Positions 42,561 to 47,861 are shown, numbered from the stretch's first letter. The stretch: 64,000 nucleotides of DNA from Candidatus Anaerostipes excrementavium (GCA_019114985.1 DXEM01000007.1:21077-85076); one strand, 5' to 3'. Notes: a model not told the origin generated them from the sequence alone. Numbers and translations are program-made.

Positions 42561-43469
42561 CTATTTTTTCTCATCGTACTCAATAGCTGCTTTGCCTGTT
42601 TTTTCATACAACAATCTTTTGTTTTTATAAGTCAGGATATACTCTGCCCCGCCGGCAACGGTCTCTTGTACCTGTCTTGTCATTTTCCCATTCTCCGGCG
42701 CTTTCAGCAGATTCCTGCCGTTTTTTGAAAAACGAGCCCGCAGTCGATACTGTCCCTGGCGAATCCATAATTCTCTGCTGTTGATTTTTTGAACCGACCC
42801 GCCAAGGTAAGCAGCGAATCGATATTCTCTATTTCCCAACAGTACAAAGCCAAGACAGCCTGTAAAATGGATCCCGGCAAGAGGAATCGATGCCGCAGCA
42901 AGCATGATCGACCCCTGCGGCAAAAAATGCTGGGTCCAAATATATTGATCCGGAAACGATGTTCCGCTGTCCCCTTCCATATATCCCATTGCATTTTGAA
43001 AACATATTTTCTCATGACCAATCGTTAACTCACCGTTTACCAAATGCCTCATGCTGTAGACTGCATGCTGACACTGCATTCCCGGAATATGCGCGAACGG
43101 CCCCATGATGTGATATTTTGGTTCCTTCCATTTCCGAAACCGAAGGATTCCCTGTACGGATGCTATCTTTTGTATTTCTGTTCTGCTGCTTTTCTGTCCG
43201 TTCTGAAAGCTTCCTGTCGCCGCTGCCTCAAATGACAGACGGATTCCTTTCTTGGAAAATAGATTTTCTCCAATCTGCATGATTCCTTTGTTTCGATCGA
43301 TTCGAAGCTGAGAAATCGGAAATTCTTTGGACCAGCTTCCTTTCTGGGTGATAATCTGAATCGAACAAGAACGTTCTTTTTCCGATAAATGAACTGCCGG
43401 AATCACCGCAATGCTTCCGCTGCTGCTCTGACATCGAAAATACCAGCCATAGAAATAATTACACATCAT
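42561..43469 (-). CDS. Tocopherol-cyclase-like protein
   Basis: YFYGWYF, IMGPF, GYMEGDSGTSFP, YIWTQ aromatic beta-rich pattern. Confidence 0.7.
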   Translation of the reverse strand: MMCNYFYGWYFRCQSSSGSIAVIPAVHLSEKERSCSIQIITQKGSWSKEFPISQLRIDRNKGIMQIGENLFSKKGIRLSFEAAATGSFQNGQKSSRTEIQKIASVQGILRFRKWKEPKYHIMGPFAHIPGMQCQHAVYSMRHLVNGELTIGHEKICFQNAMGYMEGDSGTSFPDQYIWTQHFLPQGSIMLAAASIPLAGIHFTGCLGFVLLGNREYRFAAYLGGSVQKINSRELWIRQGQYRLRARFSKNGRNLLKAPENGKMTRQVQETVAGGAEYILTYKNKRLLYEKTGKAAIEYDEKK

Positions 43470-44892
43470 GAATTCCCTCCTGCGCCGGTCCGTCCATCAA
43501 ATTTCCCTTATAATCAAACCGAGAACCGTGGCAAGGGCAATCCCAGGATCGTTCATCCGGATTCCATGTTAATTCACAGCCTAAATGCGGGCAGACAATA
43601 TCTACCTGGTGGATTTCTCCTTCTTCTGTTTTATACACCCCGGCTTTGCCTTCCAACGTTTCAACGACCGCTCCATGCCCCGGTTTCAGCCCGCTTACTG
43701 TCTCATCTGGAAGTTTGAAAAATCGTTTTGTCAATCCTTTGACTGCCTGTCCGCTGTCCGTTACAAGCTGCGGAATCTCTTCCAAAGAAAATCTGGACGG
43801 TGTAAATACTTCTGCATATGGGTTTTCCAATCCGCAGATCCTGTCTGTCAGCAGCATCGCAGATACCATCGCAGAACTCATCCCCCATTTTTGGAATCCG
43901 GTCGCTGCAAACCAGTTTGGACGATCGTCCGCATACTGCCCAATAAACGGAATTTTATCCGTCGTAATACAATCCTGTGCCGACCAAAATGCCATGACAC
44001 AACTGGAAGGATAACATTTTCTGGCCGCTTTTTTCAGCCTCTCATAGCGTCCGCCTTCCTGATTCTCTCCGACTCGGTGTGCCTGTCCTCCAAGCAGAAT
44101 ATAAGGACCATACTGCCGAAAAGAAAGTGTATCGTCCCCATCTCCGATATACATGCCATGGAGCGTTCCCGCATCTTCCAAGGCAAGGGCATAAGACCGC
44201 TCCTGGTGCATCCTGGCAAAATACATCCCCGGAAAATTCACAAAAGGAAAATGGGTGGCAAAAACAATGTAATCGGCTTTCACGCTGCCTCCATCTGTTT
44301 TTACCAGATGTTCTTCCACTTCTTTCACCAAAGTATCTTCATAGATGTTAAGCGATCCGGCCAACGCATCGATAAATTTTAACGGATGAAACTGTGCCTG
44401 TCCCGGAAACCGCACCGCTCCAGCACAGGAAACCGGAATTTCAATCTGCTTTTCAAAAACAGCATCCACCCCTAATTTCTTTGCCGCTTCTGTCTCCTGT
44501 TCCAATTTTTCTACATCTTTTGAATACACATAAGAATCACAAACGTTGAAATCACAATCTATGTCTTCTTCTTGAACGATCCTTTTGTACTCTTCTACTG
44601 CTGCCTGATTTGCCTGTACATATTTCCCGGCAATTTCCTCTCCTTTTTTCTCGAGAAATGCATGGCAGAACATTCCATGCTGTGAAGTAATCTTCGCCGT
44701 GGTATTCTCTGTCTGACCGCTGCCGACCCGATTTGCCTCCAAAACAACAACATCCACTCCGGCCTGCATCAGGCGCCAGGCTGTCAAGATCCCTGCCATG
44801 CCGCCTCCGATCACTACAACATCTGTCTTCTGCTCTCCGGTTAATGCAGCTCTTTTCTTTCTATTCCATGTTTTGCTCCAAATTGATTCCAT
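43459..44892 (-). CDS. FAD-dependent oxidoreductase with a C-terminal Rieske domain (YhfW-like)
   Basis: VIGGGMAG, TTAKIT, CPHLGC...WDCPCHGSRF; start MESIW at 44892. Confidence 0.9.
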   Translation of the reverse strand: MESIWSKTWNRKKRAALTGEQKTDVVVIGGGMAGILTAWRLMQAGVDVVVLEANRVGSGQTENTTAKITSQHGMFCHAFLEKKGEEIAGKYVQANQAAVEEYKRIVQEEDIDCDFNVCDSYVYSKDVEKLEQETEAAKKLGVDAVFEKQIEIPVSCAGAVRFPGQAQFHPLKFIDALAGSLNIYEDTLVKEVEEHLVKTDGGSVKADYIVFATHFPFVNFPGMYFARMHQERSYALALEDAGTLHGMYIGDGDDTLSFRQYGPYILLGGQAHRVGENQEGGRYERLKKAARKCYPSSCVMAFWSAQDCITTDKIPFIGQYADDRPNWFAATGFQKWGMSSAMVSAMLLTDRICGLENPYAEVFTPSRFSLEEIPQLVTDSGQAVKGLTKRFFKLPDETVSGLKPGHGAVVETLEGKAGVYKTEEGEIHQVDIVCPHLGCELTWNPDERSWDCPCHGSRFDYKGNLMDGPAQEGIHDV

Positions 44893-45050
44893 TTCCTGCC
44901 TCCAAATTCTTTTACCTATAATATCTCCCACCAAGACCGGTTTATACCTATTCCTAACTTTCCTATGAAATAAAAAATAAAAGAAAAGATGGCATCCTGA
45001 AAATGAAAATGATATCCTAAAATCAAGATCAAAAATAAAGGAGGATTGAC

Positions 45051-46052
45051 ATGCCATTTACTATCGTCCGTCAGGACATTACGAAAATGAACGTTGACGC
45101 CATCGTAAATGCAGCCAACACAGAACTGCGCATGGGCGGCGGAGTCTGCGGCGCGATCTTTCACGCTGCCGGCGCCGAAGAACTTCAGGAAGCCTGCAGT
45201 CAAGCCGCTCCTATTAAAACAGGCGGCGCGGCAATTACTCTCGGATTCGCGCTGCCCGCAGATTACATTATCCATGCAGCCGGTCCGGTCTACCATCGCC
45301 TGGACAAAAGAAGAGCAAAACGTCTCCTTCGCTCTGCCTACACGGAATCTCTAAAATTAGCAGAAGCATACCATTGTGAAAGCATTGCTTTTCCGCTGAT
45401 TTCCAGCGGCATTTACGGATACCCAAAAGCCGAAGCGCTGCAAGTGGCTTCGGAAGCAATCGAGGATTTCCTTTCTGAGCACGATATGGATGTATATCTG
45501 GCCGTTTTCGATAAATCTGCTTTTGTTGTCAGTAAAAAACTGATGAAAAACGTAGAGAGCTATATCGACCAGCACTATGTAGATACCCACAGCGTTCAAC
45601 GGAGACCGTTATTAGATGTAGAACAAAACGTATTGGAATCAACCTATGCGCCCGATTTCCAACCTGAACCAATGATGTCCGGAGCGCCTTTGGATGACCT
45701 GATAAACCATCTGGATGAACCATTTTCCGACACGCTCCTTCGGCTGATCGACGAAAAAGGCAAAACCGATGCAGAAGTTTATAAAAAGGCAAACATCAGC
45801 CGGAAGCTATTTTCCAAGATCCGCTCCATCAAAGGATATACCCCAAAGAAAGCGACGATCCTTGCTTTGGCAATTGCATTGGAACTCTCTCTATCGGAAA
45901 CAGACGAGCTGTTGGAACGGGCCGGATACGCCCTCTCTCACGCCAGTAAATTTGACGTAATTATAGAATATTTCATCATAAACGGAAAATACAATATTTT
46001 TGAAATTAATGAAGTATTGTTTCAATACGACCAGCCGCTGCTTGGCTCATAA
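45051..46052 (+). CDS. Macrodomain (ADP-ribose hydrolase/binding) fused to a C-terminal XRE-like HTH domain
   Basis: DIT, AIVNAAN, GGGVCGAIF, IHAAGP, AFPLISSGIYG; C-terminal VYKKANISRKLFSKIR...ILALAIAL. Confidence 0.88.
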   Translation: MPFTIVRQDITKMNVDAIVNAANTELRMGGGVCGAIFHAAGAEELQEACSQAAPIKTGGAAITLGFALPADYIIHAAGPVYHRLDKRRAKRLLRSAYTESLKLAEAYHCESIAFPLISSGIYGYPKAEALQVASEAIEDFLSEHDMDVYLAVFDKSAFVVSKKLMKNVESYIDQHYVDTHSVQRRPLLDVEQNVLESTYAPDFQPEPMMSGAPLDDLINHLDEPFSDTLLRLIDEKGKTDAEVYKKANISRKLFSKIRSIKGYTPKKATILALAIALELSLSETDELLERAGYALSHASKFDVIIEYFIINGKYNIFEINEVLFQYDQPLLGS

Positions 46053-46057
46053 TCAAT

Positions 46058-46101
46058 GTCGCTTTGCAGGCGACCAAACGCTCTCCTGATTTCTGTATGA
46101 T
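46058..46101 (+). promoter_or_regulatory. GTCGC-N7-GCGAC palindrome plus a TATGAT -10 box upstream of vWA-ARH
   Basis: Palindrome at 46058-46074, -10 at 46096-46101, no consensus -35. Confidence 0.45.
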
Positions 46102-46133
46102 AGACTCATCAAAGAGAACAGGAGGAAATCATA

Positions 46134-46787
46134 ATGAAAAAGAATTTAACAGAACTCGTATTTATCTTAGATCGAAGCGGCTCCATGTATGGATTGGAGC
46201 AAGATACTATTGGCGGTTTCAATTCCATGCTGACAAAACAAAAATCCCTGGATGGTGAATGCCGAATTACTACTGTCTTATTCGATCATCAGTACACTTT
46301 GTTCCACGACCGAATCGATATCCAGGCCGTTTCTCCAATGTCAGAGAAAGACTATTTTGTCGGCGGGTCTACTGCCCTTCTGGACGCCATTGGCACCACA
46401 ATCGATAAACTGATTCGAGTACAGCGGCACACAGCCGAAAGCTACCGTGCTCAAAAAGTCATTTTCGTCATTATCACAGATGGAGAAGAAAATTCCAGCC
46501 GGAAATATTCTTATGATCAGGTCAAGGCCAAAATTGAGCACGAAAAAGAAGCTTATGGATGGGAATTTATATTTCTCGGCGCCAACATGGATGCTGTGAA
46601 GACGGCCAGCCAGTTCGGCATCCACGCAGACCGGGCGGCAGAATATGTACCGGATGCTGTTGGAACGACCCTAAACTTTGAAATGATGTCAAATGCTGTG
46701 TCAGAATTTCGCCAATGCAGCACGATTTCCGATCAGCATTTTGAAACAATTCGTAAAGATCGAAAGAAACGAGGTGATAAAAGATGA
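46134..46787 (+). CDS. Stand-alone vWA-domain protein
   Basis: MIDAS DRSGS, TALLDAIG, ITDGEEN. Confidence 0.9.
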   Translation: MKKNLTELVFILDRSGSMYGLEQDTIGGFNSMLTKQKSLDGECRITTVLFDHQYTLFHDRIDIQAVSPMSEKDYFVGGSTALLDAIGTTIDKLIRVQRHTAESYRAQKVIFVIITDGEENSSRKYSYDQVKAKIEHEKEAYGWEFIFLGANMDAVKTASQFGIHADRAAEYVPDAVGTTLNFEMMSNAVSEFRQCSTISDQHFETIRKDRKKRGDKR

Positions 46788-47650
46788 TGGGAGCTATCAT
46801 TGGAGATATTGTCGGCTCCGTCTATGAGTGGCACAATATCAAGAAGAAAAGATTTTCACTTTTCCGCAAAACCTGCTTTTTTACTGACGACACGGTCATG
46901 ACAGCGGCCGTAGCCGAAGCCTTAATGAACGGCGGCAGCGAAGATGATTTTATCGATGCTATGAAAAAATATGGCAAACTGTATCCAGATGCCGGATATG
47001 GCATACGTTTTGATTCCTGGATTCACTCAGATAGCCGCGAGCCTTATCAATCCTATGGCAACGGCTCTGCCATGCGGGTATCCCCAGTGGGCTGGATCAT
47101 GGACTGTGACTCTTTCGCCAAGTCCAGAGTCTGGCCAACCCAAGGGCAGGATCTGGCAAAACGATCTGCCGCTGTCACACACAATCATCCGGAAGGCATC
47201 AAAGGCGCTATGGCTGTGGCGGATGCCATCTTCATCTGCCGTCTCTACCGCGGGAAATACAGCGCAGATTCCAGCAGCGAACCAATTCTTTCTACCTTGG
47301 AAGACTGTAAACGAATGGTAAAAGAACATACCCAGCAGGAATATGGCTATGATCTAAGCCGCACCCTTGATCAAATCCGTCCATCCTATCGTTTCAATGA
47401 AAGCTGCCAGGAAACTGTTCCACAGGCAATTACAGCCTTTCTGGAAAGCACTGATTTTGAAGATGCCATCCGAAATGCCATCTCTTTGGGCGGCGACAGC
47501 GATACTCTTGCCGCTATCACCGGCAGCATTGCAGAAGCAGCTTATGACATCCCGCAATGGATTAAAGAAAGAGCCTGGAAATACCTTGACAAACCACTTC
47601 AAGATGTCTATAAGCGATGGGAAATATTTCTTAAAGAAGGGTTTTCATAA
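46784..47650 (+). CDS. ADP-ribosylglycohydrolase (ARH/DraG family)
   Basis: GAIIGD, FTDDT, GNGSAMR, THNH, GGDSDT; ATGA overlap with vWA. Confidence 0.92.
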   Translation: MMGAIIGDIVGSVYEWHNIKKKRFSLFRKTCFFTDDTVMTAAVAEALMNGGSEDDFIDAMKKYGKLYPDAGYGIRFDSWIHSDSREPYQSYGNGSAMRVSPVGWIMDCDSFAKSRVWPTQGQDLAKRSAAVTHNHPEGIKGAMAVADAIFICRLYRGKYSADSSSEPILSTLEDCKRMVKEHTQQEYGYDLSRTLDQIRPSYRFNESCQETVPQAITAFLESTDFEDAIRNAISLGGDSDTLAAITGSIAEAAYDIPQWIKERAWKYLDKPLQDVYKRWEIFLKEGFS

Positions 47651-47654
47651 AAAT

Positions 47655-47704
47655 GAGGGTATCTACAAGTCATCAAATACGATGACAGAGATACCCTCTC
47701 TTTT
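47655..47704. terminator. Bidirectional terminator
   Basis: GAGGGTATCT...AGATACCCTC with an internal GTCATC/GATGAC stem. Confidence 0.7.
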
Positions 47705-47720
47705 GCAGGCTTTAAAAGAC

Positions 47721-47861
47721 TTATTTTATCGTTTTTTCATAAACATTACTGGCATAATTCCAATACATGGATCTGTTAAACGTCCAATCTGCTTCTCTTG
47801 CCATATAAATCAGATTGGATAAGAGCAATTCGTTCATAATTTTTTTAATACGTTTCATCAT
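47721..47861 (-). CDS. Small 46-aa protein (below the ORF-track cutoff)
   Basis: SD AAGGAG, then MMKRIKKIMNELLLSNLIYMAREADWTFNRSMYWNYASNVYEKTIK, followed by a terminator. Confidence 0.45.
   Translation of the reverse strand: MMKRIKKIMNELLLSNLIYMAREADWTFNRSMYWNYASNVYEKTIK

Follow-up and report, generated by a model that had tools for sequence, protein, structure and literature searches.

A 64,000-nucleotide stretch of Candidatus Anaerostipes excrementavium (GCA_019114985.1 DXEM01000007.1:21077-85076; called the window below, with positions counted from its first letter) contains three co-oriented and intact open reading frames (ORFs) between 45051 and 47650, which run up to one strong terminator. 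They encode a macrodomain joined to a putative helix-turn-helix module (macro-HTH), a small von Willebrand factor A (vWA) protein and an ADP-ribosylhydrolase (ARH), and a short palindrome lies between the first gene and the second. Here, we compared this locus with its relatives in genomes, plasmids and phages. A preliminary description of the same DNA had listed three co-oriented genes with intact motifs and a translationally coupled vWA-ARH pair. The coordinates, the Pfam matches, the metal ion-dependent adhesion site (MIDAS) of the vWA and the TDDT and DSDT motifs of the ARH bear out the former, and the ATGA in which the vWA stop and the ARH start overlap bears out the latter. The vWA gene also has a good ribosome-binding site (RBS) upstream. 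The features are as follows (AF2, AlphaFold2; pLDDT, predicted local distance difference test).

45039-45045, plus strand: RBS AAGGAGG of the macro-HTH gene, read from the sequence
45051-46052, plus strand: macro-HTH gene, 333 aa, ORF read at these coordinates
45051-45545, plus strand: macro domain, residues 1-165, MacroD/YmdB type (Pfam Macro, E=1.8e-37)
45546-45689, plus strand: linker from macro to HTH, with large indels and no conservation (AF2 pLDDT <50 over residues 154-221)
45690-46052, plus strand: putative XRE/Cro-like HTH with two extra helices, residues ~214-333, nearly invariant (AF2)
46058-46074, no strand assigned: predicted operator, palindrome GTCGC-N7-GCGAC, in the vWA promoter with its centre near -42, conserved across loci
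46096-46101, plus strand: predicted -10 box TATGAT, 21 nt 3' of the palindrome at constant spacing, with no usable -35
46106-46114, plus strand: conserved TCATCAAAG, predicted transcript start (near 46107-46109) or 5' untranslated region (UTR), kept across clades including the variant-operator clade
46134-46787, plus strand: vWA gene, 217 aa, ORF read at these coordinates; small cytoplasmic vWA with a basic C-terminal tail, predicted main regulated gene (AF2, Foldseek, alignment)
46784-47650, plus strand: ARH gene, 288 aa, ORF read at these coordinates; ARH3-like ADP-ribosylglycohydrolase coupled to the vWA (Pfam ADP_ribosyl_GH, E=2.4e-34)
47655-47705, plus strand: intrinsic terminator, operon end after ARH (-26.1 kcal/mol, z=-7.4, followed by UCUUUUG)

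Two samples define how far these genes belong together. Of 201 genomes of the same order, 32 have the vWA, 33 the HTH module and 28 the ARH. With phylogeny ignored, the odds ratio for co-occurrence of HTH module and vWA is 230 (28 genomes with both, 5 and 4 with one only, 164 with neither; p=5e-25), and the linkage of the ARH is weaker, at 6.6 with the HTH module and 10.6 with the vWA. We then have 22 non-redundant loci from which all ORFs were clustered, and the only families that recur over them are macro-HTH, vWA and ARH, while the flanks are unrelated. The ARH adjoins the vWA in 7 of ~27 loci of this order sample (only G000, G184, G084, G152, with two such loci, G096 and G163). The second, independent sample consists of 80 species-representative loci, drawn from at least 574 species loci, mostly in Clostridia, that were found by a profile scan of genome contigs. 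Macro and HTH are fused in about 75 of these 80 loci and the vWA lies downstream in 67, about half of the remainder being cut by contig ends, and an adjacent ARH is found in 5-7 of the 67. No conserved fourth gene beyond the ARH was found in the 22-locus or the 80-locus sample, the inserts and downstream genes being singletons or small clusters. From these sequence comparisons, the conserved core is macro-HTH, operator-promoter and vWA, and the ARH is an optional accessory. The triad of the preliminary description is thus reduced to a pair: its neighbourhood is indeed conserved for macro-HTH and vWA, and the ARH is a neighbour only in a minority of loci.

The palindrome is the feature that ties the pair together. 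Eighteen of the first loci contain its strict form, one copy each, against ~0.3 occurrences expected in 355 kb, and it is present in most of the 67 further species loci. Of 20 loci, 18 have 21 nt between the palindrome and a TAnnnT -10 box and two have 20 nt, and in the 80-locus set all vWA-associated palindromes but one have the spacing of 21 nt, making ~85 loci in all. None of the loci compared has a recognisable -35 hexamer 17±1 nt away from the -10 box. Where unrelated genes have come to lie behind macro-HTH (L013, L019 and several loci of the 80-locus set), the palindrome remains directly 5' of the vWA. Moreover, it precedes stand-alone vWA genes (L033, L034), stand-alone ARH genes (L039, L045), a small ORF followed by an ARH (L037) and a DraG-like ARH that belongs to another subfamily (L027). 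A copy with one mismatch lies upstream of an ARH-SseB fusion that stands in place of the vWA (L020). In diverged clades the two arms covary, for example as GTCAAC..GTTAC, or as GTCTC-N7-GAGAC at the same spacing. In the genome of the window itself there is a single palindrome with a correctly spaced -10 box, that of the window, and the search for this combination found no further regulon members there.

Since the palindrome stands before the vWA and also before dispersed vWA and ARH genes, macro-HTH is read as probably a one-component regulator, which would sense through its macrodomain and have vWA(-ARH) as regulon. A site centred near -42, a promoter without -35 and nucleotide-exact spacing form the textbook geometry of class II activators. 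The predicted promoter shows each of these, with a centre close to the class II value of ~-41.5 and a fixed phase to the -10 box, and on these grounds macro-HTH is most likely a class-II-type activator, somewhat more probably than a repressor, activation itself being a prediction.

Two other roles of the palindrome were considered and rejected. As a terminator of the macro-HTH gene it would form a hairpin of only -8 kcal/mol (z=-1.2) with no U-run, while the sequence itself is conserved and travels with the vWA. Autoregulation through the same site was dropped as well, for the regions upstream of macro-HTH share no motif and do not contain the palindrome. A separate case is found in genome G139 (L028:5642-7502), where a 36%-identical macro-HTH is followed by GTCTC-N7-GAGAC at 21 nt, which would drive a Sel1/TPR-like protein (assigned by eye) and not a vWA. 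This locus suggests that operator and recognition helix co-evolve and that the protein-binding output can be swapped.

Alignment of macro-HTH with 27 homologues shows a conserved macro part and, at the C terminus, a module of ~115 aa that is almost invariant, the two being joined by a Pro/Ala-rich linker whose length is hypervariable. The top matches of the macro domain, by PDB profile and by Foldseek, are E. coli YmdB and human MacroD2 (TM ~0.88 on the target), and NCBIfam groups it with O-acetyl-ADP-ribose deacetylase/YmdB-type proteins. The ADP-ribose-binding loops (NAAN, G(I/V)(Y/F)G) are present in the alignment as NAAN and GIYGYP. The active-site loop is GGGVCGAIF, with Cys33 and Phe37 in place of the catalytic Asp and His of the canonical GGGVDGAIH, and both residues are invariant across the 27 close homologues. 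Over 77 species loci, Asp/His is found in 39 and Cys/Phe in 32, so the sensor may differ by lineage: in some it may hydrolyse, in others it may only bind or have a different chemistry. Certain active viral macrodomains likewise have no such Asp, and the Cys/Phe form may for this reason be active as well.

For the C-terminal module, the AF2 model has five short helices at residues 225-290 (pLDDT 76-89) plus two more. Pfam HTH_26 matches marginally, below cut-off (E=0.0076). The only PDB entries matched by the divergent HTH-module profile are the XRE proteins 3op9 and 3b7h (E=0.36 and 1.8, in register), and hhalign aligns the module in register with SinR at 31% probability. A fold search with the full macro-HTH model was dominated by the macro domain and gained nothing on the HTH, and a PDB sequence search with the HTH module and the vWA gave no match or marginal matches only. 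These lines are individually weak, and because they combine with each other and with a conserved palindrome, an XRE-type DNA-binding domain is a reasonable reading of the module. HTH-only proteins without the macro part pair with palindrome and vWA in L022, L023 and L108. There is also a family of ~157-164 aa with the HTH module alone, at 35-38% identity (L030:5820-6293, L031:5424-5897, and similar ones in G184, G152, G136 and G051), in which neither an adjacent vWA nor the strict palindrome was found.

The Pfam vWA match of the second protein is weak and below cut-off (E=1.4e-4). Its fold is confirmed by the AF2 model (pLDDT 84.5) together with Foldseek, which matches the model to integrin I-domains, TRAP, CMG2, BatB, Rpn10 and TFIIH p44. 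The MIDAS is intact, with DRSGS, T80 and D116, and D13, S15, S17, T80 and D116 are invariant in homologues. The small vWA family is also found in 217 phage records (Streptomyces, Microbacterium, Pseudomonas and jumbo phages) at 35-45% identity. In these phages, such as Microbacterium phage Crisis (L151) and Pseudomonas phage Pyxpy02 (L152), the gene occurs without macro-HTH among genes for single-stranded DNA-binding protein (SSB), recombinase and exonuclease, and in phage Crisis an annotated ADP-ribosyltransferase (ART) lies 3.6 kb upstream of it.

In the third protein the metal motifs TDDT and DSDT are present, and its best PDB relatives are ARH3. Against the NCBIfam equivalogs it scores 33.3 bits for Tri1 (cut-off 490) and 42.2 bits for DraG (cut-off 337), thus far from both assignments. 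The same genome has a second ADP-ribose-related locus on another contig (C24, ~131.3-138.9 kb; L025:5091-12852), with genes for a type I restriction R subunit (HsdR-like), a 952-aa DUF6650 protein, a vWA paralogue and a 325-aa DraG-like ARH (Pfam E=2.7e-66). The vWA paralogue has 52% identity and begins at query residue 17, so that it lacks the DxSxS start. A 72-aa fragment of this locus has a GAFGCGAF motif, which we take to be that of PARG-like macro proteins. No operator was found upstream in the C24 locus.

Full-length relatives of both macro-HTH and the vWA number in the thousands, at ~70-75% identity, for example in Roseburia, Blautia and Christensenellaceae. The distribution of the module is patchy: it is found in ~15% of the genomes of the order, some of which contain two copies (G152, G113). 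Copies of 65-75% identity occur in Bifidobacterium, Eggerthellaceae, Synergistales, Anaerolineaceae, Spirochaetia and Muribaculaceae. A complete human-gut Heliusvirales phage genome carries the cassette with its operator, and the vWA is followed there by an annotated metal-dependent (HD) phosphohydrolase. In Christensenellaceae-type contigs found in hundreds of samples, the module sits at a prophage/resolvase junction. In a plasmid collection there are 25 records with at most 60% identity, mostly megaplasmids or chromids, and plasmid carriage of the full cassette was not confirmed.

Genes directly beside the relatives are, among others, those for a type IV restriction enzyme in L008, for a type I R subunit in L017, for ZacABC together with a JetC-like gene in L011 and for a Schlafen-like/AbiO-like helicase in L010, and the types of defence adjacency comprise restriction, Zac, Gabija and Wadjet genes. 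In order to compare, arbitrary regions of the same genomes served as controls. PADLOC families matched number 235 for 117 flank ORFs and 15 for 112 control ORFs, and at E<1e-70 there are at least 12 matches in flanks against 1 in controls (p=0.002), for ~20 loci and with a crude ORF caller. The defence-island enrichment that the preliminary description had named as a check is thus observed in this set of loci. The links to defence islands and phages, the missing writer and the modular swapping of vWA, ARH, ARH-SseB and Sel1-like outputs point to a role in conflict.

Some loci contain further genes between macro-HTH and operator. A Y-family DNA polymerase gene is found there in L013:6532-8459, L134:4507-6473 and L144:5729-7237, with a YolD-like gene too in L013 and L134. 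These inserts are 82-93% identical, therefore they appear to be one mobile unit that landed repeatedly at the same spot and not independent associations, and a functional link of the polymerase with the module was rejected on this ground. In Roseburia hominis (L004), the macro-HTH/vWA pair has a more distant Y-family polymerase gene upstream of it, in divergent orientation. Other genes between regulator and operator, assigned by eye, are ArsC/Spx-type redoxin-like (L108:3878-4273, L109:3867-4220, L114:3868-4224) and AlkD-type DNA-alkylation-repair-like (L079:3867-4511, L085:3866-4510). In Angelakisella massiliensis (L144:3884-5704), a 606-aa protein, DUF262/GmrSD-type-like by eye, follows macro-HTH instead of the vWA.

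As for the surroundings in the window, a Pfam search of the larger ORFs from 35.7 to 53.6 kb, within ~10 kb of the operon, found no ART, sirtuin, NADAR or DarT, in agreement with the preliminary description. SIR2 was not found in the whole genome (97.7% complete; search controls worked), and sirtuin-derived O-acetyl-ADP-ribose as the signal was rejected with it. The neighbours in this region are melibiase, MFS transporter, AraC, PadR, MatE, tocopherol-cyclase-like, FAD-Rieske oxidoreductase, a second AraC, flavodoxin, nitroreductase, DUF218, CAT and ABC-F. The FAD-dependent oxidoreductase-Rieske ORF (43459-45057, minus strand) overlaps the macro-HTH start in its long form. Its first ~55 codons look non-genic and its Pfam match runs from residue 79 onward, and its true start probably lies downstream of the ORF start, which would leave a divergent promoter region near 44890-45050. 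On the other side, between the ARH terminator and the AraC gene, there is a 46-aa ORF (MMKRIKKIMNELLLSNLIYMAREADW...) with its own RBS at ~47722-47861 on the minus strand, and a metatranscriptome contig spans 47688-47863, the region of this ORF. Contigs of four chicken-gut metatranscriptomes cover vWA-ARH (46021-47624) at 100% identity, and macro-HTH patchily. The pattern is compatible with transcription in vivo from an internal promoter; contig depth is not quantitative, and DNA carry-over is possible.

Taken together, we lean, by a narrow balance, towards a horizontally mobile and self-contained regulatory module, a macro-sensor Clostridial variant of the predicted writer-less reversal systems of Iyer et al. 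(PMC9503650), with the vWA as its constant output, and the module probably responds to foreign ADP-ribosylation. In this proposal, the MacroD-type macrodomain, the flexible linker and the XRE-type HTH would form a one-component transcription factor. The source of the signal would be the activity of a foreign ADP-ribosyltransferase or NADase inside the cell, and the macrodomain would sense this signal by binding ADP-ribose or an ADP-ribosyl adduct, which the Asp/His variants perhaps cleave too. The HTH would bind the palindrome as a dimer, and the internal promoter, with the palindrome fixed 21 nt 5' of its -10 box, would drive the vWA and, in this genome, the coupled ARH. The induced vWA would then capture a protein partner through its MIDAS, either an ADP-ribosylated target or the attacking enzyme, and the ARH, where present, would remove the ADP-ribose modification. 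A bolder form is more tentative and in our view falls somewhat short of an even chance: an ADP-ribosylation alarm circuit, in at least 574 species loci and in phages, where the macrodomain gates a class-II-type activator and the vWA is the universal output and the real effector, distinct from both NrtR and the ADP-ribosylglycohydrolase (ARG)-centric systems. The inducible surveillance/repair system proposed in the preliminary description gains from the functional linkage, the operator-backed regulator and the hallmarks of conflict (patchy and horizontal distribution, phage carriage, defence neighbours); the part of it that fell is the triad, together with the novelty of the concept.

Several points weigh against this proposal. 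The whole mechanism is based on locus comparison, with DNA binding, ligand, hydrolase activity, vWA partner and protection all predicted. The HTH assignment combines weak sequence scores with a model, and the macrodomain of the window has no canonical Asp/His, which makes its chemistry uncertain. Its own neighbours are redox, efflux and antibiotic-resistance genes without defence genes, and the vWA-ARH transcripts in gut metatranscriptomes come with no known inducing condition. Furthermore, the co-occurrence p-values ignore phylogenetic non-independence, the enrichment of defence neighbours comes from the small set of loci given above, and in a genome search for exotoxin-type ARTs the controls stayed silent, so its outcome is uninformative.

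The sign of the regulation is the first matter on which another explanation has to be weighed. Macro-HTH could be a repressor, covering the -35 region of the promoter until a ligand of ADP-ribose type releases it. The Nudix-HTH and WYL-HTH regulators of the ARG-centric systems have been proposed to work in this way, and for macro-HTH we regard it as doubtful though worth serious attention. XRE-family and NrtR-type factors commonly repress, Iyer et al. assume negative regulators (PMC9503650), and the operator overlaps the expected binding site of sigma region 4; the transcripts seen in vivo without a known stimulus would also fit. But a recognisable -35 hexamer stands in none of the loci, and the nucleotide-fixed spacing in ~85 loci is the signature of an activator in contact with RNA polymerase; for a repressor at a self-sufficient promoter, the overlap could vary. 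A second matter is whom the cassette serves, and the data could fit either host defence against foreign ARTs or protection of a mobile element against the ART or NADase immunity of the host. As counter-defence cargo under the same regulation, it would shield its own phage or mobile element by erasing the ADP-ribosylation or the ADP-ribose-derived signals of host immunity. The Heliusvirales genome with cassette, operator and HD hydrolase, the prophage/resolvase junction, the 217 phage records with the small vWA family, and the spread across phyla with several copies per genome are all consistent with this, as is a known precedent, the orphan DarG-like antitoxins of phages (PMC11825919). Most loci, the window included, are nevertheless chromosomal and have neither phage nor integrase genes next to them. 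A place beside restriction, Zac, Gabija and Wadjet genes is typical of host defence genes, and the vWA homologues of lytic phages come without macro-HTH and operator. On balance we consider a counter-defence role unlikely, and equally so that its targets would be DarT-type DNA ARTs, CmdT-type mRNA ARTs or TIR/Thoeris signalling.

Two further explanations are less probable still. In a nucleic-acid damage response, which we find improbable, the macrodomain would read or remove ADP-ribose on DNA or RNA ends or bases, and the vWA would work in a repair complex in the manner of Ku or TFIIH p44. The idea draws on MacroD-type enzymes that cleave phosphate-linked ADP-ribose on RNA and DNA (PMC11833690), on the Y-family polymerase and YolD-like genes between regulator and operator or adjacent in R. 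hominis, on the AlkD-like ORFs (by eye) in two loci, on the company of the phage vWA homologues and on p44 among the fold matches. However, the polymerase inserts amount to one mobile insert, all inserted genes lie 5' of the operator and so outside the regulon, no repair gene recurs 3' of it, and p44 is low-ranked among generic vWA fold matches. The least probable reading, to which we give very little weight, is a housekeeping role with no part in conflict, where the module would both sense and clear endogenous free ADP-ribose, O-acetyl-ADP-ribose and ADP-ribose-1''-phosphate under redox or xenobiotic stress. YmdB/MacroD-type domains do deacetylate O-acetyl-ADP-ribose, going by NCBIfam names, and the flavodoxin, nitroreductase, FAD-Rieske oxidoreductase, MatE, CAT and ABC-F genes nearby would suit such a role. 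Yet the genome has no detected SIR2 to make O-acetyl-ADP-ribose, a module in ~15% of the genomes of the order and scattered over phyla is unlike housekeeping, the neighbourhoods are otherwise unrelated, and a protein-binding vWA as constant output has no obvious metabolic role.

Foreign ADP-ribosylation can come from phage Alt/Mod-type enzymes, interbacterial ART toxins and NADase-derived signals, and to our knowledge bacterial responses to it are almost unexplored experimentally. The cassette offers a compact and testable handle on them, with a defined operator, a promoter with a predicted start, an assayable sensor, two natural active-site variants and one constant output. If the proposed regulatory module is real, it would add a new sensor class to the bacterial one-component regulators, provide a function for the small vWA family that is so common in gut Clostridia and found in many phages, and open the first experimental way into the writer-less 'eraser' systems predicted in 2022. 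What is new here is the well-defined operator and promoter, and the move of the ARH from core to accessory.

In comparison with known systems, the small cytoplasmic MIDAS vWA in conflict contexts resembles TerY-P and other small vWA (YegL/TerY-like) modules. Unlike them, the cassette has no kinase or PP2C partner, and none of its three proteins matches a PADLOC 2.0 model at E<=0.01. With Tri1 (against Tre1) and DraG (with DraT) it shares the ADP-ribosylglycohydrolase fold, the intact metal motifs and the logic of ADP-ribosylation reversal, but the ARH here is far below the equivalog cut-offs, its nearest structures are ARH3, and there is no cognate effector or DraT. As in DarTG, a macrodomain that would counter ADP-ribosylation occurs in a context of defence and mobile elements; in contrast to DarTG, no DarT is found in the operon or within 10 kb, and the macrodomain is of MacroD/YmdB type, not DarG/TARG1, fused to a putative HTH and paired with a vWA. 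NrtR is closer in design, being likewise a one-component protein with a domain of an ADP-ribose-processing family, a DNA-binding domain and a presumed role as ADP-ribose reader. NrtR consists of Nudix and winged helix and represses NAD-metabolism or sugar genes, whereas the protein here consists of macro and a putative XRE-type HTH, with predicted ligand binding, and would control vWA and ARH.

The closest relatives are the writer-less ARG-centric systems, which were predicted to counter viral ADP-ribosylation (Iyer, Burroughs, Anantharaman and Aravind 2022, Viruses 14:1977; PMC9503650, section 3.8). As described from actinobacteria, planctomycetes and proteobacteria, they have a repressor of Nudix-HTH or WYL-HTH type and a vWA, SseB or TY chaperone, with Macro or NADAR domains as options; about 55% of them have a coupled phosphatase (rhodanese-phosphatase, calcineurin-like, HD or HAD), and they are themselves predictions (PMC9503650). 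The preliminary description did not recognise the locus as a named system, but systems with a sensor-HTH and vWA/SseB had already been predicted. In the main text of that paper there is no macro-HTH regulator, no Firmicutes version and no such operator, and we found no description of this cassette in the published literature that we searched. Orphan PARG hydrolases have been shown experimentally to give immunity against an RNA-ADP-ribosylating toxin (PMC11833690), an experimental precedent for the general logic of orphan hydrolases. The cassette is like the ARG-centric systems in having an ARG without coupled ART or sirtuin, a predicted one-component sensor-HTH regulator, a peptide-binding chaperone (the vWA of the window, and ARH-SseB under the operator in L020) and further ADP-ribose-processing domains as an option. 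It also shares their conflict context and the way in which modules are gained and lost. It is unlike them in its phosphatases, none being present in the window operon and neither a rhodanese-type phosphatase nor ARPP accompanying the cassette. It differs further in that the sensor is Macro, with no Nudix or WYL match, and that the vWA is constant while the ARG is found in a minority of loci. Moreover, its hosts are Clostridia and phages, and its promoter geometry suggests activation where repression is assumed for the ARG-centric systems.

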